Shown here: in pieces, positions 32,626 to 57,014 of the stretch | How positions within the stretch are numbered: position 1 is the stretch's first letter | Layout of the letters: the number at the start of each line of letters is the position of its first letter | IMG/VR virus record: IMGVR_UViG_3300045988_163663 | DNA length: 64,000 nucleotides | Source: a virus | Direction: 5' to 3' (one strand) | Notes under the pieces: generated by a model | The model's input: the letters and a program-made list of their open reading frames with translations, nothing else | Databases searched by the model: none | What the model was told of the DNA's origin: nothing | Translations under genes and position numbers: made by a program

Positions 32626-34290
32626 ATGACAGATTTGAGGACTCTTATTCCAGAAGAAGAAAAGAACCTGCTGCACGATTATATTAAAGAGTACCTTCAT
32701 TCTGATAATTACTGTACAGTAGATGAAATTAATCATCTTCTGCGGTTTTGGGCTGTCGAAAAGCCCGACCTGTATAAGCTGTTGGGCAACAACCTGATGG
32801 TTAAAGACCATATTGCTTATCAGGCATCTGAAGAGGATTTGATGGATAAGTTCAGTGAAATGTATGAAGAAATTTATAATAATCCTGAATTAGCAAACGT
32901 TAAAAAATTCATTGACTCTTACGAGCAGATTACTAATATTTATTATTCTTGGATGGATGCCACTCTTGATAAGGATGAACGTGTTAATTGTTGTAGCATG
33001 ATTGAGCATTGCCTTGATAGTGAATCTCTCGTAGCCAATAAAAATGTGTATATGTTTGATTGGGGTCGCAAATCTGTTACTATTCGCCGTGGTCCGCATG
33101 CAGATACTTCAAAGCCGCTTGAACTGAAGAGTGATATGAAGTTGATGCGAATGATGGCTAAAATTGTCGATTGGTTTGAGCTGGACAAAGAAGCATTTGA
33201 ACAGTTCCGTATTCTTCATTCGCGTGTTTTGAATGATCGTATGATTAATGCTAATATTACATTGTCTATTCATCCGCTTGACTATCTTACTATGAGTGAC
33301 AATGCTTGTGATTGGGAGAGCTGTATGAACTGGTATCAGGGTGGCGATTATCGTCTTGGTACTGTTGAAATGATGAACTCCCCTGTTATCCTTGAAGCAT
33401 ATGTTGAGTCTGAGCATCCTTATTGTCCTATTGATCGTGATAATAGAACTTGGAGCAATAAGCGTTGGCGGTGTCTTTATATTGTTAATAAGGATATTAT
33501 CACTGAAATCAAACAGTATCCTTATAATAACATTTATCTGCGTGACTATGTGCTGAATAAGATTAAGCAGTTGGCTGAACAGAATATGGGCTGGCATTAT
33601 GATGATAAAATGTATGAGGTTTGGCAGAACCAGAATAATGATACTGATTTTGGTCAGGTTTATATCCGCATGAGGACCGGAGCTATGTATAATGATTATT
33701 ATGATAATCATTATGCTTATATCAATCCAGAAGTCAAAGAAGTAGAAGTTTGTTATTCTGGTGTAGCTGAATGTATGTGTTGCGGCAAAGGCTACGAAGC
33801 TGACCCGAGTGGAAATGTAGATGCATTTGTAGAATGTGATAAAGTCGTATGTGCAACCTGCGAAGGCAAAGTCCAGTGCGATGATTGCGGTGCTTGGATT
33901 GATAGTGAAGATGCTTGGTTTTGTAGTGAAGATGGTGCAACTTATTGTAGTTGGTGTGCAGAGGGCCGCACCCAGGTTTGTAGCTGCTGCGGAGAAACTA
34001 AATGGCTTGATTATGATTTCAAGAAGCAGGCTCTTCCATATATGTTTGAAGTAAAAACTCCTAATGGTAAGCATCGTCGAGATATTGGAAATCCGATTGA
34101 TGTCTGTGATGATTGCTATGAAGATTATTGTTTCGATGATGTACCAAAGGAACCAGACTTGTGGGGAGATTTTCAATATATTGATGTTGACAAGGTAGAT
34201 AAGAAGGTATGGGAGCCATTTCTGTCCCTTGAAAGAATTGCTGATGCCAAGGTGCGGCTAAAGGCAACTTACCCTGATGATTATGTTTAG
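32626..34290 (+). CDS. large HPLDY/SCMNW-family protein with C-terminal zinc-ribbons (paralog A)
   Basis: LSIHPLDYLTMSDNACDWESCMNWYQGGDYRLGTVEMMNSP core shared with 39720 and 43959; CMCCG..C..C repeats. Confidence 0.55.
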   Translation: MTDLRTLIPEEEKNLLHDYIKEYLHSDNYCTVDEINHLLRFWAVEKPDLYKLLGNNLMVKDHIAYQASEEDLMDKFSEMYEEIYNNPELANVKKFIDSYEQITNIYYSWMDATLDKDERVNCCSMIEHCLDSESLVANKNVYMFDWGRKSVTIRRGPHADTSKPLELKSDMKLMRMMAKIVDWFELDKEAFEQFRILHSRVLNDRMINANITLSIHPLDYLTMSDNACDWESCMNWYQGGDYRLGTVEMMNSPVILEAYVESEHPYCPIDRDNRTWSNKRWRCLYIVNKDIITEIKQYPYNNIYLRDYVLNKIKQLAEQNMGWHYDDKMYEVWQNQNNDTDFGQVYIRMRTGAMYNDYYDNHYAYINPEVKEVEVCYSGVAECMCCGKGYEADPSGNVDAFVECDKVVCATCEGKVQCDDCGAWIDSEDAWFCSEDGATYCSWCAEGRTQVCSCCGETKWLDYDFKKQALPYMFEVKTPNGKHRRDIGNPIDVCDDCYEDYCFDDVPKEPDLWGDFQYIDVDKVDKKVWEPFLSLERIADAKVRLKATYPDDYV

Positions 34291-34369
34291 TTTAAATTCT
34301 TGCCAAAATTGAATACTCGAAAATTTATAAAAAATTTGATATAATATATATAGAAAGGATGGGAGAGAT

Positions 34370-39719: not shown

Positions 39720-41363
39720 ATGACACCTTATGAAGCATTGACTGCACAAGATAAGGAATATATTACTGAATATATTGAAACATGGGGTGGCGTTAATTCC
39801 CCAATTAAACTCAAAGCATCTCTTGATTATATCCTTCGAGAATGGAATAAGAGTAAACAAACTCTATTTAATATTTTTGGCGAAAAGTTAATGTTGGAGA
39901 AGGAAATCCAGGTTGAAGATGGAGATAACAAAAAAGTAAGAGAAGTTAATGAGTATCTTTATAGCACTAATCCTGGTATCAATTTTATTACAAATCTTCG
40001 TAGATTATTTGAATCTGATACTACTTATTTTGAAAATACTTATGCAACAAGGCATGCAATATATAATTTAATTCAAGCTTATCAACTTTTTACTAATAGA
40101 GTTGTTAAAGGATTTACTTATCACAATAAAGATGGTAAAATAGTTAAAGTTCCAGAAGGAGCTAAGGTAATGAAAGTTCTTCAGAAAATGGCTAAAGAAT
40201 TTGATTTACCTGATTTTGAAATTTTTCGCAATCATATTTCACGTATTACTGAAGTACGTAAATCTAAAATTAAATTTACTTTGTCTATTCATCCCTTGGA
40301 TTATATGACTATGAGCGATAATGCAAATTGTTGGGAAAGTTGCATGAACTGGACTCAAGGACCGGGAAGTTATCGTGCTGGTACTATTGAAATGATGAAT
40401 AGTCCATTAGTTGTTGTAGCATATATTACTACTAAACCTTATTATCCAGCAAATACTTCTATTGAATGGACTTCCAAAAGTTGGAGAGAATTGATTATTG
40501 TTCATCCAAAAGCTATTTGTTCTGTAAAATCTTATCCTTATTACAATATTGCATTTGATAAAGCTCTTGTAAATTGGCTTGCTAATTTGGTTGAAGAAAA
40601 AACCGAATAGCGTTATAATAGAAAAAAGCCACAAGAAAGTTTAGATAGCTGTTCTTATATCGAAGCTTGGCAAGATAAAGAAGATAAGGATAATCGTTTC
40701 CTGTTGGATTTTGAAACAAATGAAATGTATAATGATTTTGGTAATACAGAAAATTATGGAATTTTTTCAATTAATCCACCAGACAATAAATATCGTACAT
40801 TCGCAATTAATTATTCTGGTTTAATGACTTGTATGTGTTGCGGCGAAAATGGTTATTGGTCTGATGACACTGAAATGGTAGTTTGTGAAGACTGTGATCC
40901 ACCTACTTATTGTTATTGTTGTGGCGAACGAGTTAATACAAATGATGCAATTGAAGTAGATGGTGAATGGGTTTGCGAAGATTGTTATAATGATTTACAT
41001 AGATGTTTATGCTGTGAGGATGCTCATTTTGATGAAGATTTCACTACTGTATTTGTTGGACATATTGACAATCAAACTATTAATATTGATTATGATGAGC
41101 ATTATATTTGTAATGAATGTCTTGCCAATAAAGAATATTTAAAGTATCTAGGAGATACTGATATTAGAGCTGAAACAATTCGATTGGATGGCGGTCCTTA
41201 TTATGGTAGGGTGGCTCTCTTAATTGAAGAAGATGATTTAAATGTAGAGGCTAAAAAGATAATTTCTAATGATCCTTATTCTACTATAATTACTGATTAT
41301 ACTTATGCTATTCGTCGTTATCCTGAGCGTTTTTATAGTTACAATAAGTCAATTGCGATTTAA
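39720..41363 (+). CDS. large HPLDY/SCMNW-family protein with zinc-ribbons (paralog B, TAG-containing)
   Basis: FTLSIHPLDYMTMSDNANCWESCMNWTQG; TAG at 40608 is in frame with downstream ORF 40704. Confidence 0.55.
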
Positions 41364-42879: not shown

Positions 42880-43878
42880 ATGGGTAAAAAAGTTTTAGTT
42901 CCTGATTTTACTGAAAATTGTAGAGGGCTTTTGGAAGGGCTATTTAAGATTAGTGAAGTAGGTCTTTTGAAAGCTCTTGGTGATTTTGTATCTAATAAAT
43001 ATTCTAATGTAGAAATTACAGAAGATTATGTATATGCTGAAGGTAATATTCCTGTTATGCTTATTGCACATGTAGATACTGTATTTAGACAGCCAATTCG
43101 TCAATTTACTTATAATGAGAAAAGAGCAGTTTATAAAGGCAAGGAAGGTCTTGGAGCAGACGATAGAGCAGGTGTTTTTGCGATTATTCAGATTTTACGC
43201 AAAAAGTATAGACCTTATGTTCTTTTTACAACAGATGAAGAAATGGGCGGCTATGGGGCACATGTATTTGTTGAAGCACATCCAGTAGCTCCAAATATTA
43301 AGTACATGATTGAGCTTGATAGAGCTGGTGAAAGAGATTGTGTCTTTTACGAGTGTGAAAATTTTACATTTGTAGATTATGTTGAAAGTTTTGGTTTTAG
43401 GCAAGCATTAGGCTCATTCACAGATATTAGTATTATTATGCCTGAATGGGAAATTGCCGGAGTAAATTTATCAGTTGGCTATCATCATGAACATACTCAA
43501 AATGAAGATTTACATATTAGAACATTGTATAATACAATTAATAAAGTATGTAAAATGCTCGATGATATTGAAAATGCAGATAAATATAAGTTTATTCCCA
43601 GTAAAGAATACCTTCAGTGGATTACATTAACTAATAAATATCATATGCCTTATGATTTTGATGATGATAAACTTCTTAATTGTAGTTTTTGTAATCAGTT
43701 GTATTATGAGTGGGAAGATTTCCCTCTTGATATTGATGGAGTAAAGGTTCATGTATGTCCTGAATGCTTGGCTCTTGACCCTAATATTCATCAATGTGAA
43801 AAATGTTATAATTTATTTTATTCAAATAATATGAAAGAAAGAGTATGTAATAAATGTCGAGTCCCTGTTGTAATTTAA
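42880..43878 (+). CDS. M42/M28-like metallopeptidase with C-terminal zinc-ribbons
   Basis: IAHVDTVF, GADDRAGV, TTDEEMGG metal-binding motifs; C-terminal CSFCN...CPEC...CEKC...CNKC. Confidence 0.5.
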   Translation: MGKKVLVPDFTENCRGLLEGLFKISEVGLLKALGDFVSNKYSNVEITEDYVYAEGNIPVMLIAHVDTVFRQPIRQFTYNEKRAVYKGKEGLGADDRAGVFAIIQILRKKYRPYVLFTTDEEMGGYGAHVFVEAHPVAPNIKYMIELDRAGERDCVFYECENFTFVDYVESFGFRQALGSFTDISIIMPEWEIAGVNLSVGYHHEHTQNEDLHIRTLYNTINKVCKMLDDIENADKYKFIPSKEYLQWITLTNKYHMPYDFDDDKLLNCSFCNQLYYEWEDFPLDIDGVKVHVCPECLALDPNIHQCEKCYNLFYSNNMKERVCNKCRVPVVI

Positions 43879-43958
43879 ATGAAATTAAAGAACAAGTAAA
43901 GAAGGTTATTGCCTATTCATAGGGGCTGGATATTAACCTTTTAAATATTGATAAATTA

Positions 43959-45280
43959 ATGAGCGATTGGGAAGAAAATAAATGTAAATTTTATAGTAGA
44001 CTTCCCGGCAATAAATTAATTTATCAAAGTCATACGCCTATTACAATGTCTATTTCAGAAGATGATAAAAAGGCTGAATTAGATTGTTTTATTGATAATA
44101 TTCGTTGGCGTTATAACTTATTTGAGTTAAAAAATTTTGTTGAAAATAATAGAGAAAATTTTTATAATAATATTTTAAGCGAAGATTATCCAATGGATAA
44201 TGGAACTATTATTCCAAAAGGAATGAAAATAATTAAAGCATTTAAATATTTTGTAGAAGATAAAGAAACTCTTACTGAAATACAAGATAAGGCAAGTATG
44301 CTTATTCAAAATACAAAAATTAATGGATATTTTTGTATGTCAGTTCATCCATTGGATTATCTTAGCCTAAGTGAAAACACACATAATTGGCGGTCATGCC
44401 ATGCACTTGATGGAGAATATCGTGCTGGTAATTTATCTTATATGACTGATAATTGTACAATTATATGTTATATTAAGAGCGAACATGACGCAGTTCTGCC
44501 CAGATTTCCAGATGATGTGCCGTGGGCAGATAAGAAGTGGCGTATGCTTCTTCATGTATCTAATGATGATACTATGATTATTTCAGGTCGTCACTATCCT
44601 TATGAAAGTAAAGGCTTACAAGATTTTGCACTTGAATTGTATGAAACATTTTTTGGGCAAGGATATAGTTTTACTGATTGGTGTCATGAAAAATATAATA
44701 CATTTACAGTAAATGATAAGATTATTTCTAATGATTGTCGTTTATTGCCTACTGGATATATTATGGCCCCAGATATTAAGATTATTATTGATCCAAAAAA
44801 TCCTTTACATTATAATGATCCTCTTCATTCTACTGTATATGATTATTGGTTTAGTATTGCTTATAGTGAACCTTATTGGCATGAAGAAGGCATTCCGCAA
44901 GATAAATTAATTCTTCCAAGAACTCGTACTACTACTAAAGTTAATATAGGACATGATGTAAAATGTTGTATTTGTGGTAAAAATGATTGTGTTTTAACAG
45001 ATACAATGCTTTGTATTGATTGCGAACTTAAATATGGTACAGAAGAAACAGAAGATTTTACTTTCTGTAGAGAATGTGGTAGACGTATCTATATTCCTGA
45101 AGCAATATCATTAGATGATGATGATGGTTATGTATGTCGCAATTGCGGAGACAATTATTAGATATGTGATAATTGTAATATGTATTATGATAAAAAAGAT
45201 TTAATTTATGATGAAGAAAACAATGCTTACTATTGTGAAGCTTGTTATGATGAAATTTTATTTGATAGGGAGAATGAATA
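43959..45280 (+). CDS. HPLDY-family protein with zinc-ribbons (paralog C)
   Basis: FCMSVHPLDYLSLSENTHNWRSCHALDGEYRAGNL; TAG at 45159 read through to TAA 45278. Confidence 0.5.
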
Positions 45281-45589
45281 ATGGCAAAAGGTAGTATTGC
45301 TAAAGATGCTGTTGTAGAAAAAATTGCAGAAGCATTTGGTGAAGATTTCCTTGGATCTTATGATAAAAAGTATTATGTGCGAGCTAAAGAAAATGGACAA
45401 TATATTCAGATTGCAATTAGTCTAACTTGTCCAAAAACGCCTGTTGAATCTTTTGGTTCTATGGATTTTGGTAATAATGAACTTAATTTTGAAGATGGAG
45501 CAACAATTCAGCCTGCGAAAAAGGCTACAGAAATTAGTCCAGAAGAAGAAGAAAATTTAAAAGCTTTAATTGAAAAGCTTGGTTTGTAA
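45281..45589 (+). CDS. hypothetical protein
   Basis: ORF 102 aa followed by hairpin terminator AGAGAAAGTCAAattGACTTTCTCT. Confidence 0.45.
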   Translation: MAKGSIAKDAVVEKIAEAFGEDFLGSYDKKYYVRAKENGQYIQIAISLTCPKTPVESFGSMDFGNNELNFEDGATIQPAKKATEISPEEEENLKALIEKLGL

Positions 45590-45696
45590 GAGAAAGTCAA
45601 ATTGACTTTCTCTTATTTTTATGTTATAATTATTTATATAGGGCATATTATATTAATTAAATAATTAAATTTCTTATATAAGAAAGGAATAAAAAT

Positions 45697-45978
45697 ATGA
45701 AGAAGATTATAATTCCTCAAGAAGAAGTAAATTATCTTTAGAAATTAAATTATGAAATTGAAGCTAGAAAAAATTTATGTCAATTTTTAATTAGACAAAA
45801 TATTAGAAATAAAGCTTTTGATGATTATCATAATGAGTATATAGAATTATTTGCTGAATATGAATTAGCTAAATTAGAATTAGAAAATAATTATATTAAA
45901 CCAGTAATTGGAAATCAAACTTGTAATTGGAATTTAGATTTTTAGACAAACGAGGTAAATATTGATGTTATTTCCTAA
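45697..45978 (+). CDS. small protein upstream of radical SAM gene (TAG-containing)
   Basis: 93 codons with 2 in-frame TAG; overlaps rSAM start by 14 nt. Confidence 0.4.
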
Positions 45979-47305
45979 GATAGTTAATATTCCTGAAGAA
46001 TTTTCTGATTTTATAAGTCGTTTATATTCTAATGATTGCTTAAATTCTTAGGCTGTATTTACATTAACTTTTTAGGTTACAGATGATTGTTGTCTAAATT
46101 GTGTTTATTGTTATCAAGGACATAAAGGAAAACATAAATTATCCTTTAATACAGCTAAATAGATGATTGATTAGATACTAACAAGAGACAGTAAAGTTAT
46201 TAATTATATTGACTCTTATAAAATACCAGGAGTAGTAATAGAATTTATAGGTGGAGAGCCATTTTTAGAAATTGAATTAATTGATTAGATTACTGATTAT
46301 TTTATTAATAAAATGATTGAATTGCGGCATCCTTGGGCCACTAAATATAAAATTTCAATTAGTTCTAATGGTATTTTATATTTTGAACCAAAAGTACAAG
46401 AGTATATTAAAAAAAATAATGAAAATTTAAGTTTATCAATTTCTATTGATGGAAATAAAAAATTACATGATGCTTGTAGAGTTTTCCCTGATGGTAGTGG
46501 TAGTTATGATAAAGCATTGTCCGCCGCATTACATTATAGCCATAATTATAACAAATGGATCGGGAGTAAAATGACTATCTCTCCATTTAATATAGATTAT
46601 TTATATGACGCTGTTTTAGAAATGATAAACAATGGTTATAGTCAAATCAATCTAAATTGTGTGTATGAAAAAGGTTGGGAACTTAACCATGCCACTACAT
46701 TATATTATTAGTTAAAAAAAATTGCTGATTATTTATTAAATAATGATTTGTGGGATAAAGTTTATTTATCTATTTTTTATATTAATGATGGAAGTAAAAA
46801 TTTATCTAATGATAATTGGTGCGGCGGGAATGGTCGTATGTTAGCCTTAAATTGGAAAGGTAAATATTATCCCTGTTTACGTTATATGGAAGATAGCATA
46901 AGTAATCAGCCAGAATATTATATTGGAGATATTTATTAGGGAATAGGCCAAGATAATTTAACCATCAATAGATTAAAAGATTTATCTGAAATAACAGTTA
47001 TTAGTCAATCTCCTCAAAAATGTTTAGATTGTGAAATTTCTGGAGGATGCTCTTGGTGTACAGCTTATAATTATCAAGAAACAGGTAATGTTAATAAAAG
47101 AGTTACTTATATTTGTGATATGCATTATGCTACAGTTCTAGCTTCTTTATATTATTTAAATTCTATTTTAAAAAAAATAAACTCGAATAAACGATTTAAA
47201 TTTAATGGAGATATGGAAAAAGCATTAAAAATTATCTCTTAGGATGAATATAATATAATAAAGGAGGCAATGACAAATGAAAATAGGCACGACAATAACT
47301 TCTGA
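45965..47305 (+). CDS. radical SAM / SPASM-domain peptide maturase (TAG-containing)
   Basis: DDCCLNCVYCYQ (CxxxCxxC), GGEPFLE, C-terminal CGGNG...C...CLDCEISGGCSWC SPASM-type Cys; 6 in-frame TAG; TGA at 47303. Confidence 0.65.
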
Positions 47306-47927
47306 TAGATTCAATGAATTAAAGAAAAAAATAAAGGCTGAATGTTTACGTCGTAAATATATAGGTAGTGTAAGTTCATATGGAGGGACTTCTTATGATT
47401 ATACTACTTAGCCTAATAATGGAAAAGTTATTTCAAAAGAACATATAACAAAACTGGTAGAACCTATGGCGGCAATAAATATTGAAAATCAGAATGAAAA
47501 TATAAATGTTATTAAAGATGATGATTTAAGTACATTAGAGGCAAAAATTACAGCTTATCAAGCTATGGGATTAACTGATTCGAATACTGGATGTTCAGCT
47601 TATTGCACTGGATTATGTTCTACTAGTTGTAGTGAAAGTTGTGGAGTACAATGTCAGGGAACTTGTTTAGGCAGTTGTAAGAATACTTGCCAAGGAGGCT
47701 GCCAAAACACTTGCAGAGGCGGATGTCGAAGCAGTTGTAGTGGCAGTTGTGATGGATGCAGTGGTTCTTGCTCAGGTGGATGCCAGACTGGGTGTAGCGG
47801 ATGCAGCGGTAGCTGTACAAGACATTGTGCTAACGATTGTACTGGATTGTGTGGAGGAAGTTGTTCTGGATTATGCACAAGTTGTACTGGCACATGTAGT
47901 GGAACTGGTAGGAATGAACCATTATAA
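47277..47927 (+). CDS. Cys-rich C-x3-C repeat protein (SCIFF/ranthipeptide-like)
   Basis: AAGGAGG RBS 8 nt upstream; about 30 Cys in CSAYCTGLCSTSCSESCGVQCQGTCLGSC... repeats; one in-frame TAG at 47409; alternative start 47466. Confidence 0.6.
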
Positions 47928-47973
47928 TTTAAAAACATTTATTGAAAATATATATAATTGTAAAATATATTAT

Positions 47974-48615
47974 ATGTATCTTATACAAAATAATATTTTA
48001 TTTTGTATAAGTGATTATAAAAATATAAACTTTCAAAAATATGATATGGATATTTAGATTTTATCTATTTATGAATATTTATTTCAAAAGTATATTTTAC
48101 ATAAAGATATATTAAAACAATATAAAGGTATAGAATTATATAAAATTATGGAAATTCAAGATAAAATTTTTATTAATAGATATAAATTATTATTGTAGAT
48201 TATTAATAATAATTATAATTTTGATAATTAGTTAATATACACTGATTTTAATAATTTTAATTTTGAACAAAATATTAGTTATATAAATTATTGTTTAAAA
48301 TTACTATTTAATAATTTTAAAAAAATAGATAAACAATTTTGGAAAATTTTAGATTAGATTTATTTTTTAATTAATGGTAAAACTAATTTATTTTTATTGT
48401 TGGGAAATTTTTATTTGAATAAAAGTAATTTATAGCAATTTACTGAAGAAATAAAAAAAATTCCTGGAATTAAAGAATAGCTCTCTTTTAGTTATACAGC
48501 TTTAAATTTAGCTATTGAAATTGATAAAGTTGCAGAAAATAAAAATTATCTTAATGAATTAATTGAAATTATTGATAATCATTCACAAGAAAAAATTTAT
48601 AAATTTGATATTTAA
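47974..48615 (+). CDS. AT-rich hypothetical protein (8 in-frame TAG)
   Basis: No TAA/TGA for 213 codons in roughly 20 percent GC sequence; only TAG interrupts. Confidence 0.45.
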
Positions 48616-48689
48616 TAAAAATTAATATATAATATATATACAAAATAAAGAAAATAAAGACTTTAACAGCAAAGAAATGGACAGTAAAT

Positions 48690-48733
48690 CCGTCGCGAAT
48701 GCTACGCAGGTTCGAATCCTGCCCTCCCCACCA
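48690..48733 (+). ncRNA. tRNA 3'-half-like element (T-arm, acceptor 3' strand, CCA) without upstream 5' half
   Basis: GCAGG-TTCGAAT-CCTGC CCTCCCC A CCA; GGCGGAGG 6 nt downstream; own upstream promoter motif. Confidence 0.35.
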
Positions 48734-48884
48734 CTATATGGCGGAGGTAGGGAAGCGGTTAAACCCAGCGGAACCAAACCAAATAAGTCTTGTTTGAATA
48801 AAATAATTATTTGATTTTTAATAAAAAATATTATATAATATTTATATGAAAAGAGAAAGGCTTTTACAGCAACTTAAACTTTTT

Positions 48885-49050: not shown

Positions 49051-49199
49051 GCTCTCGTAGCTCAATTGGTCAGAGCCGGCGACTTATCCAAAATTAGTTT
49101 AAATGGTAAAATAGTTTATGCGCAAGAAAGATGTAAGTTCAAATCTAACATTTTGGGCCAAATCGCCAGATGTGGGTTCAAATCCCGACGGGAGCACCA
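49051..49199 (+). tRNA. tRNA with about 80-nt insertion in anticodon loop
   Basis: GCTCTCG-TA-GCTCaattggtcaGAGC, anticodon stem GGCGA(49078)...TCGCC(49163), T arm and acceptor CGGGAGC-A-CCA. Confidence 0.5.
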
Positions 49200-49225
49200 T
49201 ATTCCAATAGAAAGGAATTAAAATA

Positions 49226-49465
49226 ATGAAGTTGACAAATATTAAGCAGGTTGAAGATTTTATTTCAGCAGTTAATCGTGCTCATAGTAATGTATGGCTG
49301 GTTAGTCCGCAGGGCGATAGATACAATATGAAATCTGCACTTTCACAGTATATTGCACTTGGTGCATTACTTGGTCAGCATGGCGATGAACTGGAACTTT
49401 TTTGTGATAGTAAGCAAGATGAAGGTTTATTTATTGAATTTTTTGTTCGTCATTCTGAAGTTTAA
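49226..49465 (+). CDS. hypothetical protein
   Basis: ORF 79 aa with GAAAGGAATTAAAATAATG leader. Confidence 0.45.
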   Translation: MKLTNIKQVEDFISAVNRAHSNVWLVSPQGDRYNMKSALSQYIALGALLGQHGDELELFCDSKQDEGLFIEFFVRHSEV

Positions 49466-51084: not shown

Positions 51085-51141
51085 AAAAAATATTATAAAA
51101 TATATATACAAAATAAATGAGAAATAAATTCTCATTTGTAT

Positions 51142-51218
51142 GGGACAGTAGCTTACGAGGTCGGAGCATTGGTCTGAAAAACCAAAGGATGGAGGCTCGA
51201 TACCTCCCTGTCCCACCA
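51142..51218 (+). tRNA. tRNA-Phe (GAA)
   Basis: GGGACAG/CTGTCCC acceptor, anticodon loop CTGAAAA, CCA encoded. Confidence 0.65.
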
Positions 51219-51500
51219 ATTGGTCTTACACATGGGGTTTCCGATTTGAACTAGGCAGATTAGTCACCTGCCGTTGGCAATAGACCAATTAAAAATAAAC
51301 TGAGGCAAAGGGAAATCGGGTAGTTATGATGAACTTCATAATGAAATCCTCTTGTAATCAAGCTAATTGGGAGAGAGGTAGCACGGGAACGGGGAGAAGC
51401 GTGCTATAAAAGGTGAAATACTTCTTTCCACCATAAGCCGGTGTAGCCGAATGGCATAGGCGAATGGAATTGAACTGAAAATTTTTTGGTTCAATTCCAT
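51219..51500 (+). ncRNA. structured RNA candidate
   Basis: TTGGTCT...AGACCAA, GGCAG-9-CTGCC, TAGCACG-14-CGTGCTA, GGAATTGAAC-13-GTTCAATTCC; no ORF. Confidence 0.3.
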
Positions 51501-51548
51501 TAATGAATAATTTTTAATTTCTAATATATTATGAAAGGAGAGATTGTT

Positions 51549-52016
51549 ATGGCTCGTTCAGATATTTTAGAAAAAGAAAAAGAAATTCGTTAGTGGATAA
51601 ACGAAGAAAAATCTAAACGTTATATATGTGAATAGTTGCATTGTAAACCTGAAACTTTAAATTCTTATTTGGAGAAAATGAATATTGAATATAAGGGATA
51701 GCCTTATAAAAAAGGATAGAATAAAAATCCTCGATGTTATAAGCCAGCTATTTATTATATTGATAATCATAAGTATATTAGCTCTTCTGTTTTAAGACAA
51801 AAATTAGTAAAAGATGGATTGAAAAAAGACAAATGTGAAATTTGTGGTATTTCTATGTGGCAAGGAATTAAATTACCTTTAGAATTACATCATAAAAATG
51901 GAAACCATTTTGATAATGATTTAAATAATCTACAAATTTTATGTCCTAATTGTCATTCAATTCAAAATGGAAATAGTGGAGCAAATATCGGTAAATACGC
52001 GGGATTGCTGGAATAG
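51549..52016 (+). CDS. HNH homing endonuclease (TAG-containing)
   Basis: CEICG...HHKNGNHFDNDLNNLQILCPNCH; 5 in-frame TAG upstream. Confidence 0.55.
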
Positions 52017-52083
52017 GTAGACAACTCATCTTTAGACGGTGAGGCCGACAGGTGTGAGGGTCCGAGTCCCTCATCCCGCACCA
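51999..52083 (+). tRNA. tRNA-Leu (TAG anticodon), type II
   Basis: GCGGGAT/ATCCCGC, anticodon loop TTTAGAC, long variable arm, CCA. Confidence 0.6.
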
Positions 52084-52373
52084 ATCATATTCAAAAGAAA
52101 AATTATTGTTGTGATTGTGGAAAAGAGATATGTTTAAAAGCTATTAGATGTAAATCTTGTGCATCTAAATTTAGACAAAATTCTAAATCTCCAGATAGAG
52201 AAATTTTAAAAGAATTAATTAGAACTACACCATTTGTAACTATAGGGAAAATGTATGAAGTTTCTGATAATGCTGTCAGAAAATGGTGTAAAAATTATGA
52301 TTTACCTTATTAGTCATTAAAAATTAAAAAAATTTCTGATGAAGATTGGAAAAATATTTAATATATAAGGTGT

Positions 52374-52401
52374 GAAGGTTCGAATCCTTTCACCGGTACC
52401 A
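52374..52401 (+). ncRNA. tRNA 3'-half-like element
   Basis: GAAGG-TTCGAAT-CCTTT CACCGGT A CCA; no 5' half found. Confidence 0.3.
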
Positions 52402-52469
52402 ACAGTGAAGTAGTAGCTATACTCATTATAATCAAGGCTCGGTGGTTGGTGGCTCCATCGTTATGTAAA

Positions 52470-52546
52470 TAAGCCATATGTATATTACTTCTTGGTGTAA
52501 TGGAAGCATACTGCCTGAAAGAGGCGGAGGTATTGGTTCGATCCCG
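52470..52546 (+). tRNA. tRNA-like gene, unresolved
   Basis: T arm ATTGG-TTCGATC-CCGAT at 52522; anticodon-like CTGCC-TGAAAGA-GGCGG; acceptor pairing imperfect. Confidence 0.3.
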
Positions 52547-52894
52547 ATAGAAGGAGTAATTAAAGCTAGGAAATGATAATCGCCTAAATAAATAAAGGAT
52601 TATTATTAAAGATTATTTAGATTAAGGAAGCGGTTAAAGTTATTACTTACTTGATTATAAAATAACATGACCGCAAGACGAGTGTTTGAAGCTTGTCTAT
52701 AAACAAATTCTTCATATGTTGTCTTTTATACTTACTCTTTGGCTGTTTCTTGACATATAAGTAAAAGCGGAAAGGGAGTTAAAGGTTCAGCTAAAAAACC
52801 GGTTTGTTTTTTGATAAGATTTTAAAAATTAGGTGGCAAAATCTTATTTGAGTGACGCTGCTCAAGAGGGTCCGGAACCTCTAAAATGCGATAT

Positions 52895-53027
52895 GCGCCA
52901 GTGGCCAAGTGGTATGGCACCTGCCTTTGTGGAATTGATGTAAGTAGCATTTTAATGTATTGGTTCAAATCCAATATTCCGCACCATAAGCAGGGCAACG
53001 CGGGTTCGATCCCCGCCTGGCGCACCA
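52895..53027 (+). tRNA. tRNA-Gln-like (UUG) with about 58-nt insertion in anticodon loop
   Basis: GCGCCAG...CTGGCGC-A-CCA; D arm GCCAAGTGGTATGGC as in tRNA-Gln; CCTGC(52920)+CTTTG ... AA+GCAGG(52990) gives loop CTTTGAA after removing insert. Confidence 0.5.
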
Positions 53028-53233
53028 TTTGAGTTAAAAAGTATAAATCTTATAAACTCCCTGTAAAATCAGGCGGACAGATGGACCGATAGTACCATTA
53101 TTGTGGAAGTCAGGCAGGTCCATTTTACTGGGCTTACTGTAAAAGCCAGTTTAATACACCCTCCATACCCAATGAGGAATTTTTATAAAGGTCTATTTAA
53201 TTTTTCTTGGTAGTTTAGTTAAATAGACTGTAT

Positions 53234-53310
53234 GCGGGATTAGCTCAGTTGGTTAGAGCGTTTGGTTTACACCCAAGAGGTCATTGGTTCGAATCCAATA
53301 TCCTGCACCA
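53234..53310 (+). tRNA. tRNA-Val (TAC)
   Basis: Canonical cloverleaf, loop TTTACAC, G3:U70, CCA. Confidence 0.65.
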
Positions 53311-53376
53311 ATAAATTTGAAAATTTAAAAAAAATATTATATAATATATATATAATAATAAAGGAGATATTTGAAA

Positions 53377-53543
53377 TGGCAACTACTAAGAAACCTGCAA
53401 TTAAAATGGACAGCACAGAGTTGAACGAGTATCTTCTGTTCCGCCGTCGTAGATCAATTGTGCCTGCCAAGAAAGGTAAGGGCATGGAATATGATAGAGC
53501 GAAGGAAAAAGAAAAATCTGAAAAAATGATTTCTGATGAATAA
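53377..53543 (+). CDS. small basic protein
   Basis: AAAGGAGAT RBS; MATTKKPAIK... Confidence 0.4.
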
Positions 53544-53547
53544 ATAT

Positions 53548-53620
53548 GCTCCCATCGACAAGTGGTCTAAGTCACCAGCCTTTCACGCTGGAGTCGCCGG
53601 TTCAAATCCGGCTGGGAGTA
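53548..53620 (+). tRNA. tRNA-Glu (TTC)
   Basis: GCTCCCA/TGGGAGT, loop CTTTCAC, T arm GCCGG-TTCAAAT-CCGGC; no CCA. Confidence 0.55.
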
Positions 53621-53704
53621 GAGATACAAATTCTACAACCTTCACGCGGTGTATCTTGTTTTAACTAATGTAGAATAAAGTAAATAAAAAGGAGCTGTTT
53701 AATT

Positions 53705-54328
53705 ATGGCATACATTTATTAGATTATTAATGATATAAATTAGAAAATTTATGTTGGTAAAACTGAATTTTCTATTGAAAAACGTTTTAAAGAACATTGT
53801 AAAGATGCTTTTAGAGAGCGCAATGAAAAACGTCCATTATATTCAGCAATGCGAAAATATGGAGTAGAACATTTTCATATTGAACTAATTGAAGAAACTG
53901 ATGATGCTAATAATCGAGAAACTTATTGGATTGAAAAATTAGGTTCTTTTAAATGGGGATATAATGCTACAATAGGCGGAGATGGTAAAAAGTATCTTGA
54001 TTATGATTTAATTATTGCTTCTTATCAAGAAATTAAAAATATTGAAGAAACTGCTCGTAAATTAGGAATTTCTTCTGATAGTGTAGAAAGAATTCTTAAA
54101 GAAAAAAAAGAAAAAATTTATTCTCAACAAGAAGTTAATTTAGTTAAATCAGGTAAAAAAGTTGCTCAATGTGATAAAAAAACTGGAAAAATTTTAAATA
54201 TATTTCCATCTATTGGAAGTGCAGGTAGAGCTATTAATAAACCTGATATTACTCATATAAGCGCTGTATGTTTAGGTAAAAGACAAAGTGCTTATGGTTA
54301 TAAATGGAAATTTATTGAAAATAATTAA
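53705..54328 (+). CDS. GIY-YIG homing endonuclease (TAG-containing)
   Basis: MAYIY(TAG)IINDIN(TAG)KIYVGKT aligns with I-TevI GIYQIKN...KVYVGS, putting TAG at Gln. Confidence 0.6.
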
Positions 54329-54342
54329 AATTATTCTTATAT

Positions 54343-54419
54343 GGTGCTATAGTTCAGTTGGCTAGAATGTCGGACTGTCTCTCCGAAGGTCAGGGGTTCG
54401 AGTCCCCTTAGCATCGCCA
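54343..54419 (+). tRNA. tRNA-Asp (GTC)
   Basis: Loop CTGTCTC, T arm AGGGG-TTCGAGT-CCCCT, GCCA end. Confidence 0.65.
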
Positions 54420-54511
54420 TTCGTTTTCTCGATATAAGCGATTTTGTTACATAGAACTTGATAGAGCGTTCTATTAATCTGGTTAGATTAAGTTTTATAA
54501 CTATCATATTT

Positions 54512-54587
54512 GGGGCACGGGACTGCATGGAGTGGTCGTCTCCCTTGCAAGGAGAAAAGCAGATGAGTTCGATTCTCATGTGTTCCA
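54512..54587 (+). tRNA. tRNA-Ala (TGC)
   Basis: G3:U70, loop CTTGCAA, T arm ATGAG-TTCGATT-CTCAT; no CCA. Confidence 0.55.
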
Positions 54588-54726
54588 GTCATCTAAGATC
54601 CACAACCGCCACGAGGTAGATGATGGGTAATGCTAATAGTGGACAAAAATAAAAATCGGGCAAAGTTAATTAAACTCCTCAAAAATTTTGCTAAATATAA
54701 TAGAAGGAAAAAAGGAGTTGAATTAA

Positions 54727-55359
54727 ATGCCTAGAAAATTAACTCAAGAAGAATTTGAACAAAGAGTTTATAAATGTGTAGGGGATAAATATTTTGTTAT
54801 AAGTGAATATAAAGGAAAATCTAAACCAATAGATTTAAAATGCAATATTCATGATATTGTTTTTCAAGCATCCGCAGAATGTTTTATGCGAGGTCCAAAA
54901 GAAGTAAGATGCTCTTGCCCTAAATGTTCAGAAGAAAAGAAAAATGAAAAATTTTCTGCAAATAGAACTGAATTAGAATGTGCTTATTGTGGAAAGAAAT
55001 TTATTCGTCCAAATTCTAAATTGAATAATTCAAAAAGTGGAATATATTTTTGCTGTAGAGAACATAAAGATTTAGCTCAACGGATAGAGTTTGGTTTGAA
55101 AGAAATTCAACCAAATCATTATGGAAATAATATTGAAAGTATATATACTTATCGTAAAAATGCTTTTAAATATTATCCTCATAAATGTGCTATCTGTGGT
55201 TGGGATGAAGATAAAGATATTTTAGAAGTTCATCATATTAATGAAAATAGAGAACACAATGAATTAGAGAATTTAATCATATTATGTCCTATTTGTCATA
55301 AAAAATTAACTTCTCATAAATATAAATTAATTAATAGGGAAAAAATTATTTCTTATTAA
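54727..55359 (+). CDS. HNH homing endonuclease
   Basis: CAICGWDEDKDILEVHHINENREHNELENLIILCPICH. Confidence 0.6.
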   Translation: MPRKLTQEEFEQRVYKCVGDKYFVISEYKGKSKPIDLKCNIHDIVFQASAECFMRGPKEVRCSCPKCSEEKKNEKFSANRTELECAYCGKKFIRPNSKLNNSKSGIYFCCREHKDLAQRIEFGLKEIQPNHYGNNIESIYTYRKNAFKYYPHKCAICGWDEDKDILEVHHINENREHNELENLIILCPICHKKLTSHKYKLINREKIISY

Positions 55360-55382
55360 TTTATGAAAAATTTATAATATTT

Positions 55383-55425
55383 GGAGCTTGAGGCAAAGCG
55401 AGTTCGACTCTCGCAAGTTCCACCA
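55383..55425 (+). ncRNA. 43-nt tRNA-like minihelix (acceptor stem + T arm only)
   Basis: GGAGCTT-gaggcaaa-GCGAG-TTCGACT-CTCGC-AAGTTCC-A-CCA. Confidence 0.3.
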
Positions 55426-55477
55426 TTAAGTGTGATATATTCCAAACACGTAGGGTGGTAAGCACACGGGTTTTCTA

Positions 55478-55553
55478 GAAGCCTTCCCTATGAATATGGA
55501 TGCATAGCTCAGTTGGTAGAGCAATTGACTGTTAATCAATGGGTCGGAGGATC
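55478..55553 (+). tRNA. tRNA-Asn (GTT)
   Basis: GGATGCA-TA-GCTCAGTTGGTAGAGC, loop CTGTTAA, GCCA end; unusual T loop ATCATAC. Confidence 0.6.
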
Positions 55554-55677
55554 ATACCCTTCTGCATCCGCCACCGCACTCGCGGAAAACATACAACTCA
55601 ACTGGTGCATAGAACTTGATGGAGCGTTCTATTAGTCTGATGCCTGCATTAGATTAAGTTTTATAACCATCATATTT

Positions 55678-55751
55678 GGGGACATAGTTTATGGTAGGAA
55701 AACGTTGAATTTAATTCAAAGTCGAGGGTGCGATTCCCTCTGGCTCCACCA
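55678..55751 (+). tRNA. tRNA with anticodon loop ATTTAAT (UUA), shortened 15-nt anticodon arm
   Basis: GGGGACA-TA-GTTT..AAAC, TTGA-ATTTAAT-TCAA, T arm GAGGG-TGCGATT-CCCTC, TGGCTCC-A-CCA; one acceptor mismatch. Confidence 0.35.
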
Positions 55752-55885
55752 TTTATGAAAGACAATACAGCAATTATAAATTTGCTTTGGGAGCCGTGTG
55801 TTGTAGGTTCGAGTCCTACTGTCTGGTTGAAGATCGGATATAGCGTAATTGGTAGCGCAACGTATAAAAATTGTCTTGTTAATAT

Positions 55886-55961
55886 TGCGGGATCGTCAAG
55901 TGGTTAAGACACCAGCCTCATAAACTGGTTATCGTGGGTTCGAATCCCACTCCCGCAACCA
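55886..55961 (+). tRNA. tRNA-Met (CAT)
   Basis: TGCGGGA/TCCCGCA, loop CTCATAA, T arm GTGGG-TTCGAAT-CCCAC, CCA. Confidence 0.55.
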
Positions 55962-56085
55962 TATGAAAAGCCCACACAGCAATTTTTAATAAGGTTAAAT
56001 AAGAAATTCTGCAAAAATTTTTTAGAGTTGGTTCAAATCCAGCAAATGATTTTAGGGCTTTGTTAAAATTGTTAAGGAGAAAATA

Positions 56086-56271
56086 ATGAAGTTCAATCCA
56101 GGAGATAAGGTCTGGTGTAAGAAGTATGGCAAGGGTAAGTGCCGCAAGACTGATGATAAGGACAATTTCATGACTTATCTTTTCAGATTTTATGATGGTA
56201 CTCTGATTTGGATGCCAAAACGTCAGGCTGAACATTTTGTAAGAGTTCGTTCCACCGAGGCCACGGTGTGA
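56086..56271 (+). CDS. small basic protein
   Basis: ORF 61 aa, AAGGAGAAAATAATG RBS, TGA stop. Confidence 0.4.
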   Translation: MKFNPGDKVWCKKYGKGKCRKTDDKDNFMTYLFRFYDGTLIWMPKRQAEHFVRVRSTEATV

Positions 56272-56430
56272 ATATAAAGTCCGGTTATAGGAAATCCTGT
56301 CATTAGGCGGCAGGCTACCGGTAATCCTTTCTTATATATTTAAATATGTAAGGAACAAAAACTATACAATAGATAGAGTTTTTACGCCTTGGCGCAATGC
56401 TTGTTTTTTACTATCTATTTTTTTATATTC

Positions 56431-56517
56431 GGAGTCGTGGGATAATGGTATTCCAATGGATTGCTAATCCATCCTACCTCTTGGGTAGTCCGCGTTCGAG
56501 TCGCGGCGATTCCGCCA
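56431..56517 (+). tRNA. tRNA-Ser (GCT), type II
   Basis: GGAGTCG/CGATTCC, loop TTGCTAA, 17-nt variable arm, GCCA. Confidence 0.6.
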
Positions 56518-56523
56518 TTATAT

Positions 56524-56611
56524 GTAGGAGTGCCAGAGTGGTCGATTGGGTTAGTCTCCAAAACTAATTGTAGCTGCACATCCAGGGTTCGAATCCCTTG
56601 CTCCTATGCCA
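56524..56611 (+). tRNA. type II tRNA with apparent CCA anticodon (Trp-reading?)
   Basis: GTAGGAG/CTCCTAT-G-CCA; anticodon stem TTAGT/ACTAA, loop CTCCAAA; 14-nt variable arm. Confidence 0.4.
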
Positions 56612-57014
56612 TACGTATTAAGACTCATTTTCAGCAAACTTTTGCCTGTAAAGGCTCTACAATACTTATTTATTACTAATAGATGAAAAAGTATAATAAA
56701 GAAAATAAAGTATATTTTGAAAAGTTTTTTCTTTTTAGCTAGTTTAGTAAACTAAATTTCGCATTTTTTCTTCTGGCTTTTCAATGAGTCTTGTTTATTA
56801 AAATAATTGGTATCGCTAAGCTTTATGGTAATTGTGGTGTATTTAAATCATAGATAGTTAAGGGTCTATAGCCAATTATGGTATGCGGAATTAACTTGCC
56901 CGGCGGTAAGCCTTGTCTTGAAAACAAGTGGTCCTGTGACAGGGATGGGGATCGACACCTCAGTTCCGCGCCACTCGTTTCAAATTCGTTCATTGCATTT
57001 CATCCTTTCTATAA

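Follow-up and report, generated by a model that had tools for sequence, protein, structure and literature searches.

A phage-borne radical SAM/SPASM enzyme is encoded in a three-gene cassette with a cysteine-repeat protein, its presumed substrate

We analyzed a 64-kb stretch of viral DNA (IMG/VR record IMGVR_UViG_3300045988_163663), which is called the window below, and studied within it positions 45697-48615, where a radical S-adenosylmethionine (SAM) enzyme with a SPASM domain is encoded directly before a protein rich in cysteine repeats. When the standard bacterial code was used, this region fell into fragments. When the region was translated straight through, three long frames appeared that were broken by TAG alone. 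The open reading frames (ORFs) were called with TAA and TGA as the sole stops. Three overlapping genes lie in 45697-47927, and they encode a protein of 93 amino acids (aa), the enzyme of 446 aa, and a Cys-repeat protein of 216 aa. These genes are translationally coupled, the first two overlapping by 14 nt and the last two by 29 nt, and a Shine-Dalgarno-like sequence is present at each of the three. A prediction made earlier from the sequence by itself, which we call the original prediction, had drawn the same ORFs, and its coordinates all stand once TAG is taken as a sense codon. The TAG codons number 2 in the 93-aa gene, 8 in the enzyme gene, 1 in the Cys-repeat gene, and 6 in an AT-rich ORF further downstream (counted from 47752). 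The features are listed in Table 1; related loci are labelled L001 and so on.

Table 1. Positions of the cassette, its parts and its flanks in the window, and of the analogous Cys-repeat ORFs in three cultured phages.
Feature	Position	Strand	Basis
102-aa protein, upstream of cassette	45281..45589	+	family 10; syntenic only in TAG-recoded relatives L001, L003, L072
Terminator-like hairpin, 14-bp stem then T run; closes upstream gene	45586-45616	+	consensus match
Promoter-like site TTGACT-17-TATAAT with upstream TG, 11 of 12	45602-45630	+	consensus match
Putative small helper protein, 93 aa, TAG at codons 15 and 83	45697..45978	+	homologues directly upstream of enzyme gene
Radical SAM/SPASM maturase (predicted), 446 aa, 8 TAG read as Gln	45965..47305	+	TIGR04115, phrog_1802, Pfam matches
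CxxxCxxC [4Fe-4S]-binding motif, codons 42-49, C-LNC-VYC	46088..46111	+	C42, C46, C49 invariant (alignment A3)
SPASM-type auxiliary-cluster region, Cys 286, 304, 353, 356, 362, 365, 384	46820..47116	+	invariant Cys
N-terminal helical domain of Cys-repeat protein, residues 1-105	47277..47591	+	alignments A1, A2; AlphaFold2
Cys-repeat region, 26 units C-x3 or C-x2, Gly/Ser/Thr/Gln background	47592..47897	+	TIGR04114, phrog_6085
AT-rich ORF, about 189 aa, probable start 48043, in-frame TAG	48043..48615	+	family 21; homologues solely in L001, L003
Tandem Cys-repeat ORFs, L161 (SPN3US)	1094-1486, 1497-1901
Tandem Cys-repeat ORFs, L163 (EarlPhillipIV)	2167-2553, 2565-2963
Tandem Cys-repeat ORFs, L164 (pEa_SNUABM_29)	2100-2492, 2502-2903

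The family of the enzyme was clear from its profile matches. The enzyme matched the NCBIfam model TIGR04115, "radical SAM peptide maturase, CXXX-repeat target family", with 427.5 bits against a cut-off of 350 (E = 5e-128), and residues 33-397 were aligned to positions 3-359 of the 359 positions of the model. It also fell into the phage family phrog_1802 (214.5 bits) and matched the Pfam models Radical_SAM (29.2 bits) and Fer4_12 (23.1 bits). Close relatives from Clostridia genomes and from IMG/VR phages exceed the TIGR04115 cut-off as well, and three of them (L041, L005, and L086) score 463-521 bits. The original prediction had described an enzyme of about 440 aa with a CxxxCxxC motif, a GGEPF motif and SPASM-type Cys, and each of these was found. 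The first motif is DDCCLNCVYCY, that is, C42-x3-C46-x2-C49, and the second is FIGGEPFLE at residues 94-102. In an alignment of eight sequences (A3), which consists of the window enzyme and seven relatives with 47-51% identity to it, FIGGEP at 94-99 and all seven C-terminal Cys were invariant. The seven Cys are spaced as C-x17-C ... C-x2-C-x5-C-x2-C ... C and agree with the two auxiliary clusters by which a SPASM domain is recognized, in keeping with TIGR04115 membership. The Pfam SPASM model by itself stayed below its threshold on this enzyme (13.5 versus 21.5), and the TIGR04115 model spans the SPASM region end to end. From these matches, the enzyme is a full member of TIGR04115, in which the radical SAM site is complete and the SPASM domain has all seven Cys. 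It is the sole radical SAM gene in a six-frame scan of the window.

Models of several maturases of peptides that the ribosome makes and that are modified post-translationally (RiPPs), such as PapB, SCIFF, and CcpM, also matched the enzyme, with E values from 1e-47 down to about 1e-8. The second-best family was that of PapB (NF047865), of which nearly the whole model was covered at 159.9 bits against a cut-off of 340; membership of this family is ruled out by the score and by the unlike motif of the substrate. The SCIFF model TIGR03974 gave 106.5 bits against a cut-off of 425, with an alignment beginning only at model position 92, and the enzyme is thus not the SCIFF maturase that it had been taken to resemble. 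The QhpD model TIGR03906 gave 80.9 bits against 453. The closest solved structure was CteB (5WGG; E = 3e-20), which was aligned from its residue 90 onward. Only about 30 residues lie ahead of the radical SAM core in the window enzyme, which lacks the N-terminal recognition domain of CteB. An identity with QueE-type enzymes or with NrdG activases, which the original prediction had set against its own proposal, is excluded. The only sign of it was a weak match to a QueE-like PHROG (E = 8e-4, compared to 5e-128 for TIGR04115), and the NCBIfam and PHROG scans listed no NrdG match for the enzyme.

In one related locus (L074, 4912-7284), the maturase gene is interrupted inside the CxxxCxxC motif by an intein that contains a LAGLIDADG homing endonuclease (PF14890, PF14528), and matching alignment gaps in L071 and L077-L080 suggest the same intein there. 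Inteins typically persist in genes that are obliged to stay functional.

The third gene (47277-47927) contains one TAG, and its product of 216 aa has 28 Cys, close to the about 215 aa and about 30 Cys first reported. Twenty-seven of these Cys lie in the last 111 residues (106-216), where the spacing is x3 in 23 cases and x2 in three cases, and this tail is 24% Cys in a Gly/Ser background. The protein reached 21 bits with TIGR04114, the target model paired with TIGR04115, whose cut-off is 20, and it matched phrog_6085 (E = 2e-7). The assignment of the enzyme to the radical SAM/SPASM class that modifies peptides or proteins is therefore borne out by a curated pair of families: the enzyme is above its cut-off, its neighbor with the CXXX repeat reaches the target cut-off, and nothing bars the window cassette from membership. 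The Cys-repeat ORF is not a product of chance, because it holds the only Cys run in the six-frame scan of the window, shows an excess of synonymous changes, and keeps its Cys register in 387 homologues. Compared to L001, whose enzyme is 95% identical, the Cys-rich gene has 21 synonymous and 5 non-synonymous codon changes and no insertion or deletion; the frame is thus under purifying selection.

The N-terminal part of the Cys-repeat protein, which is called the N-domain below, has the conserved motif RFxxLKxxVKAECLRRxYxGSVxxYGGxxYDYT...EHYxKxxxPLNAIN. AlphaFold2 predicted four helices in it, with predicted local distance difference test (pLDDT) scores of 84-95 over most of residues 11-100. For the repeat, the pLDDT was below 50, that is, no fold was predicted for the unmodified chain. 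In an exhaustive search of 1.84 billion representatives, 234 clusters contained the N-domain, with few exceptions as the N-terminal part of proteins that are 150-300 aa long. No fold match to it was found in the PDB, and its matches in BFVD were solely uncharacterized viral homologues. Many homologues carry the label PF27846.1. We consider the N-domain to be a candidate docking (leader-like) or anchoring domain.

In order to see how constantly the genes occur together, we collected related loci. A scan of IMG/VR gave a viral set of 80 loci with an enzyme identity of 45-95%, and for the bacterial set, in which each bacterial and archaeal species was represented by one genome, there were 48 close and 32 distant loci. 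The latter hold more distant radical SAM enzymes and served as a built-in negative control. A Cys-repeat ORF was present in 123 of the 128 related loci (80 viral and 48 bacterial). In the viral set, it lay on the same strand and within 6 kb of the enzyme gene in 75 loci, and the gene pair pointed out by the original prediction is thus kept in related phages. The five viral exceptions are short or truncated contigs, or cover only about 1-2 kb upstream of the enzyme gene. The close bacterial loci, with 38-57% enzyme identity, come nearly all from Clostridia, and their carriers include Oscillospiraceae, Lachnospiraceae, Blautia, Eubacterium, Christensenella, Desnuesiella, Neglectibacter, and Vallitalea. 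Not one of the 48 lacks both a Cys-repeat ORF and the small gene. In contrast, the small gene and the N-domain were found in none of the 32 control loci, and the sole Cys run among these was one 79-aa ORF on the opposite strand. The three genes are thus co-inherited in phages and prophages.

The 93-aa ORF ahead of the enzyme gene, which had been mentioned at first only as a neighbor, is present as drawn. ORF clustering placed a homologue immediately 5' of the enzyme gene in 17 of the 19 representative viral loci; one was also found in 39 of the 48 close bacterial loci, and a profile search gave 85 relatives. Because the gene is conserved in this way in the representative loci, we count three genes in the cassette, and its product is a conserved third component. 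No Pfam, NCBIfam, or convincing PHROG match was obtained for the protein, also when seven diverse homologues were scanned. AlphaFold2 gave a confident model (pLDDT 94.8) consisting of a short strand, a long antiparallel alpha-hairpin (8-33 and 39-71), and a beta-hairpin, and this model had no fold match in the PDB at E < 0.5. The idea that it is a PqqD-like recognition element (RRE) was dropped, since the confident model is not a winged helix and has no significant PDB match. We suppose a helper or adaptor role for the small protein, for the sole reason that its gene is strictly linked and translationally coupled to the enzyme gene.

In some Clostridia prophages (L086, 5096-5650; L110, 5098-5652; L108, 5181-5678), an extra protein of 166-185 aa is encoded between the Cys-repeat gene and the small gene. 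It has no Pfam match and may be a fourth, lineage-specific component of the cassette.

The presumed substrates vary much in size among the loci, from 141 to 826 aa and with up to 145 Cys. The common form, to which the window protein belongs, has an N-domain of about 105 residues followed by 100-320 residues of repeat. A different form, seen in 35 loci (L041-69 and L074-80), is a protein of 813-826 aa with the repeat at its N-terminus. The remainder of this protein consists of two glycine-rich domains of the ALK/LTK type (PF12810, E = 2e-100), and its gene comes after a gene for a 91-aa protein with repeats of the tail-fibre type. Elsewhere, as many as six Cys-repeat ORFs follow one another, or a single protein contains 86-145 Cys. 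In 180 proteins of the family, the second residue after the Cys is Gly in 42% of the cases, and the first and third are mainly Ser, Thr, or Gly. Acidic residues are minor in the repeat, Asp making up 8% and Glu 2% of the third position, and Lys and Arg are nearly missing from it. In the bacterial prophage loci L087-L092, L096, L100, L101, and L105, the substrate is apparently split over two ORFs, the first with the N-domain and a short repeat (11-18 Cys) and the second, adjacent or overlapping, of pure repeat (41-96 Cys). Such a split could be due to a programmed frameshift or to assembly errors in the repeats, or the two ORFs could be two real proteins.

A protein of this composition might also be thought to bind metal. 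That is, the Cys-repeat protein would be a metal-thiolate or Fe-S binder like metallothionein, which the enzyme would use as a cluster, sulfur, or electron partner, or the enzyme would act on another target, e.g., the tail fibre. The high Cys content, with regular CxxxC and CxxC in Gly/Ser, is reminiscent of metal-binding proteins, a chain for which AlphaFold2 gives no fold in the apo form fits such a role, and tail-fibre genes are frequent neighbors of the cassette. However, the co-occurrence of the two genes is strict and specific to this clade of enzymes, and the curators of TIGR04115 and TIGR04114 defined the families as an enzyme and its target. To our knowledge, every characterized relative of the enzyme modifies an adjacent Cys-containing peptide or protein. 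Moreover, a sulfur or electron donor needs neither 100-500 residues of repeat nor a length that varies among close relatives. We therefore think that metal binding is a very improbable role for the Cys-repeat protein.

The code of the phage was considered from the enzyme gene. TAG codon 37 lies within the invariant motif TFQVT, in which the position is Gln in all seven standard-code relatives; TAG codon 108 corresponds to Gln in five of the seven, and TAG codon 249 in six. A reading of TAG as Gln (code 15) is supported, because these three TAG codons of the enzyme align mostly with Gln in the homologues, and the carrier of the cassette is a TAG-recoded phage of about 190 kb. A CUA anticodon was seen in none of the 12 tRNAs of the window, which covers about one third of the genome. 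In-frame TAG is missing from most of the related viral loci, and recoding is therefore a trait of this phage and not of the cassette system. The practical lesson for annotation is that standard gene callers miss such genes in TAG-recoded phages.

In-frame TAG was absent from essentially all plus-strand ORFs of window positions 1-25000. From about 25.4 kb on, it occurred in many plus-strand ORFs, including those of MetK, a peptidase, the cassette, a methyltransferase, homing endonucleases, and tail-fibre genes. This split between 1-25000 and 25400-64000 fits an unrecoded, perhaps early, block and a recoded, perhaps late, block, and the cassette sits in the TAG-containing part along with the tail-fibre genes. 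The MetK gene was confirmed at 26046-27203; its proposed service as the SAM source of the enzyme is speculation.

The gene context of the related loci bears on the use of the product. In related phages, the order is a baseplate wedge gene (phrog_6), a tail protein gene (phrog_48), a tail-fibre or virion protein gene (phrog_2163), and the cassette; orders in which a tail-fibre gene precedes the cassette or an endolysin gene follows it were also found. In a tblastn search with eight reference proteins, a tail or baseplate gene lay within 6 kb in 89 of the 128 loci. For 22 bacterial loci missed by this search, 127 neighboring ORFs were compared with the PHROGs, and the families that matched were mainly those of baseplate, tail, tail-fibre, and endolysin proteins. 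The bacterial copies of the cassette lie in the tail, tail-fibre, and lysis modules of prophages, and isolate genomes show the series of tail-collar fibre (PF12571), Cys-repeat protein, small protein, enzyme, and amidase. Since the cassette family is found mostly in the tail-gene regions of phages, its product is probably a cross-linked protein of the phage and not a secreted antibiotic.

The other use that the original prediction had offered, a phage-encoded RiPP, was weighed against the same context. In such a case, the N-domain would be a long leader, and a stapled core would be released at lysis or by host machinery and act as a toxin, bacteriocin, or signal. The enzyme family does sit among the RiPP maturases (PapB, SCIFF, and CcpM), the N-domain is similar in size to the long leaders of the NHLP and Nif11 types, and the place between the tail-fibre and lysis genes of prophages, where the cassette is often found, is a common site for accessory genes. 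In contrast, the signature of an ABC exporter (Walker A plus LSGGQ), which would include exporters fused to a C39 peptidase and which atypical exporters may escape, was found in none of the 128 loci and not in the window, compared to 6 of the 32 control loci. No protease or leader peptidase was recognized among the conserved neighbors of the cassette; an M28-like peptidase accompanies it only in the closest relatives. In addition, the repeats are from 100 to more than 500 residues long, some of them fused to glycine-rich domains of 600 aa, far beyond the known RiPP cores, and the carriers include large, lytic-looking, TAG-recoded phages of about 190 kb. An exported RiPP thus seems unlikely. 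Judging from the missing exporter signature, the tail modules, and substrates of up to 826 aa, a cross-linked phage protein would fit the gene context better.

We then asked what is on record for cultured phages. A megablast search of 12 kb against GenBank phages gave no near-identical cultured phage, and the best protein matches by tblastn (35-36% identity) were to unannotated faecal contigs. At 25-26% identity, the matches were to "radical SAM superfamily protein 1" of SPN3US-like jumbo phages of Salmonella, Escherichia, and Erwinia, and also to Campylobacter phages. SPN3US, EarlPhillipIV, and pEa_SNUABM_29 have two radical SAM genes and, 1.2-1.3 kb upstream of these, a tandem pair of Cys-repeat ORFs, each of about 130 aa (Table 1). 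The locus of SPN3US consists of SPN3US_0163/0164 ("radical SAM superfamily protein 1/2"), gp166, and an unannotated ORF, and that of EarlPhillipIV consists of gp157/158 and gp162. In both phages, the Cys-repeat ORFs come directly after an annotated virion structural protein, and in EarlPhillipIV a tail assembly chaperone is encoded downstream. The best NCBIfam match of the SPN3US enzyme is again TIGR04115, at 125.6 bits against the cut-off of 350, and because of this low score we treat the SPN3US locus as an analogue and not as a member. This one locus showed neither a counterpart of the small helper gene nor one of the N-domain.

The GenBank records leave one of the Cys-repeat ORFs of SPN3US without annotation and show the second one, in SPN3US as in EarlPhillipIV, merely in a shortened form; in the record of pEa_SNUABM_29, genes on the opposite strand are called over the Cys-repeat ORFs.

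The gene pair had been thought to be undescribed for phages. This cannot be upheld, since both proteins are in PHROG families (phrog_1802 and phrog_6085) and the SPN3US-like jumbo phages have an analogous locus. Already known, then, are the curated enzyme-target family, a sibling of SCIFF and PapB that was set up solely from genomic context and reportedly goes back to in silico work by Haft and Basu in J Bacteriol in 2011, and its presence in phages, which is implicit in the PHROGs and in the jumbo-phage genomes of GenBank. What appears to be undescribed is the three-gene structure, the N-domain, the architectures of the substrates including the glycine-rich fusions, and the setting in tail modules. 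Our literature searches found nothing on the TIGR04115/CXXX-repeat system in phages.

From the above, we propose that this phage cassette of three genes cross-links a protein that the phage itself uses and that is probably associated with the tail, most likely via thioethers, and we put the probability of this proposal at about one half. The steps would be as follows. The small helper, the 105-residue N-domain of the substrate, or both would bring the Cys-repeat tail to the enzyme; this docking is proposed because the enzyme has no N-terminal recognition domain of the CteB type. 5'-Deoxyadenosyl radicals derived from SAM would then lead to many intramolecular cross-links along the C-x3-C repeat, most likely sulfur-to-carbon thioethers by analogy with PapB, CteB, and QhpD. 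In this way, a chain without a predicted fold would become a rigid segment that is independent of redox conditions and resistant to proteases. The product would stay with the phage, most likely on the tail or tail fibres, and would be neither cleaved nor exported as a diffusible RiPP.

Several points weigh against this proposal. The chemistry is its weakest step. The thioether linkage is extrapolated, because TIGR04115 is an uncharacterized family and the models of its characterized relatives score below their own cut-offs; we know of no member of TIGR04115 that has been characterized biochemically, and the literature searched contained no such study. The acceptor pattern of PapB, Cys-x3-Asp/Glu, is absent, the residue at +4 being Cys, and Asp and Glu together occupy only about 10% of the x3 positions. 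Docking through the N-domain is not universal, since the substrates fused to glycine-rich domains have none, and the helper role of the small protein, which is not PqqD-like by its fold, is a guess. Position by itself is no proof of a structural role either, because the interval between tail-fibre and lysis genes is also a classic landing site for accessory ("moron") genes. As for the virion, the main text of the proteome paper of SPN3US does not mention gp163-167, the corresponding Erwinia paper deals with another phage, and we found no virion proteomics covering any Cys-repeat protein. Finally, the clade of the window is itself an exception to the tail-module pattern. The window and L001-3 have no tail gene within 6 kb of the enzyme gene, and L072-73 had no match to the tail reference set.

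This exception bears on another explanation, in which the modified Cys-repeat protein would not be built into the tail but would work within the infected cell, e.g., by serving host takeover or anti-defence, or as a scaffold or an injected effector. The cassette of the window lies among genes for an M28-like peptidase, Zn-ribbon paralogues, a C5 DNA methyltransferase, and a tRNA array, it has a terminator- and promoter-like boundary of its own, and the N-domain has no known fold. For this particular phage, an intracellular or injected effector is hard to exclude. In most other lineages, however, the cassette is found within tail or baseplate modules, and the repeat is fused in some of them to glycine-rich domains that we take to resemble phage adhesins. 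Even in the window, the cassette shares the TAG-containing part of the genome with tail-fibre-like genes, which start about 10 kb downstream at 57337. For the system as a whole, we give an intracellular role only a small chance.

The proposal of a phage protein cross-linked by the cassette can be compared with known systems. In PapB and freyrasin, a ranthipeptide system, the motif has the same period of four from Cys to acceptor as the window repeat. In contrast to the Asp or Glu acceptor of PapB, the window substrate has Cys at +4, and it has 26 repeat units in a protein of 216 aa, compared to six rings in a short peptide. In the SCIFF system (CteB/Tte1186), a radical SAM core is likewise joined to a SPASM domain with two auxiliary clusters, and the gene for a Cys-rich substrate is adjacent. 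The window enzyme differs from it in the missing recognition domain and the TIGR03974 score below cut-off, and the SCIFF peptide is about five times shorter (about 45 aa with six Cys, versus 216 aa with 28 Cys) and has another motif. No SCIFF peptide model surfaced in the NCBIfam scan of the window proteins. QhpD, also a radical SAM/SPASM enzyme, makes several Cys-to-carbon links in QhpC, which is kept in a larger assembly; among the systems compared, the pair is the best precedent for thioethers that a radical SAM enzyme installs in a protein subunit and not in a free peptide. The QhpD model is far below cut-off here, and QhpD belongs to a periplasmic enzyme context without a repeat architecture. 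The locus of SPN3US and the Erwinia phages resembles that of the window in having Cys-repeat proteins together with a pair of radical SAM genes, the second of the SPASM type, beside virion structural genes. It differs in the low identity of the enzyme, the extra, shorter radical SAM gene, and the Enterobacteria hosts. By analogy only, the "chainmail" of the HK97 capsid is also a covalent, post-translational strengthening of a virion protein. That system consists of autocatalytic Lys-Asn isopeptide bonds in the capsid, whereas the present one would use a separate radical SAM enzyme and a Cys repeat and is known from genes alone.

A stronger form of the proposal is that thioether-stapled rods or meshes of the Cys repeat reinforce the tail or tail fibres independently of redox conditions, installed by the enzyme as a new class of post-translational modification of the virion that is widespread in phages of gut Clostridia and has distant analogues in jumbo phages. 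We offer this only tentatively, as clearly short of an even chance. If it is true, TIGR04115 would be a structural-maturation enzyme of phages and not a RiPP enzyme. Disulfides are not available in anaerobes. Should the cross-links be real and the virion contain the product, viruses of anaerobes would have a new way of hardening extracellular proteins, and the family would offer new enzymes for stapling very long repeats.

The family of CXXX-repeat radical SAM enzymes, so far one of sequences only, gains a biological setting and a concrete hypothesis. An orphan enzyme family is given a biological role that is testable and would be remarkable if confirmed; the finding itself is not categorically new. 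Among the cultured bacteria that probably carry such prophages are Anaerobacterium chartisolvens DSM 27016, Desnuesiella massiliensis, Neglectibacter timonensis, Vallitalea maricola, and Eubacterium pyruvativorans. SPN3US has a genetic system of amber mutants, and with its analogous locus the idea is testable now. In GenBank phage records, Cys-repeat ORFs are likewise missed, or genes are called on the wrong strand in their place.

The flanks of the cassette were considered separately. Positions 45586..45630 are likely to be the start of its own transcription unit. The promoter-like site there is the best in the region and overlaps the terminator-like hairpin, the number of such sites in the region not being above the shuffled expectation. 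The 102-aa protein encoded just upstream had no family match and is doubtful as a member of the cassette. The flanking ORFs of the original prediction thus divide: the 93-aa ORF upstream belongs to the conserved cassette, while the AT-rich ORF downstream, which is present with its TAG codons and ends at 48615 as drawn, falls outside it. The latter is rejected as a member because it is conserved only in the two closest relatives (L001 and L003). It had no Pfam or PHROG match, and too few substitutions separate it from its counterpart in L001 for a coding test.

Further upstream, a metallopeptidase of the M28/M20 type with a C-terminal cluster of CxxC Zn ribbons is encoded at 42880-43878 (+). 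Synteny of its gene with the cassette is confined to the recoded clade (L001, L003, and L072), for which reason the protein was rejected as a core leader peptidase. Three paralogous proteins of 470-570 aa are encoded at 32626-34344, 39720-41363, and 43854-45281 (all +). They share the motif (S/M)(I/V)HPLDY(L/M)(T/S)(M/L)S(D/E)N...W.SC and several C-terminal Zn-ribbon (CxxC) pairs, and the one paralogue that was scanned matched phrog_18912, a family of unknown function, and had no Pfam match.

Downstream of the cassette, a tRNA-like 3' half (T-arm GCAGGTTCGAATCCTGC, then CTCCCCACCA) runs straight into what looks like the 5' half of a tRNA (GGCGGAGGTAGGGAAGCGGTTAAACCC) at about 48675-48790 (+). 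The models of transfer-messenger RNA (tmRNA) and permuted tmRNA gave 12-15 bits there, which is below the gathering score of 47. This element may represent a tRNA-like or tmRNA-like gene in permuted form, or what is left of an attachment site. A tRNA gene at 49051-49196 (+; Rfam RF00005, 42.7 bits) has an insertion of 73-76 nt in the anticodon loop. It was missed by ARAGORN with default settings and, when introns were allowed, was called as tRNA-Trp(CCA) with an intron at 34/35; the splice point, and hence the anticodon, is ambiguous. This gene overlaps the spurious 5' part of an "ORF" at 49103-49465, whose real start is probably 49226. The 12 tRNA genes of the array lie in 51100-56650 (+) and are interspersed with three endonuclease genes, which by motifs read by eye encode HNH endonucleases at 51531-52361 and 54727-55359 and a GIY-YIG homing endonuclease at 53705-54328.

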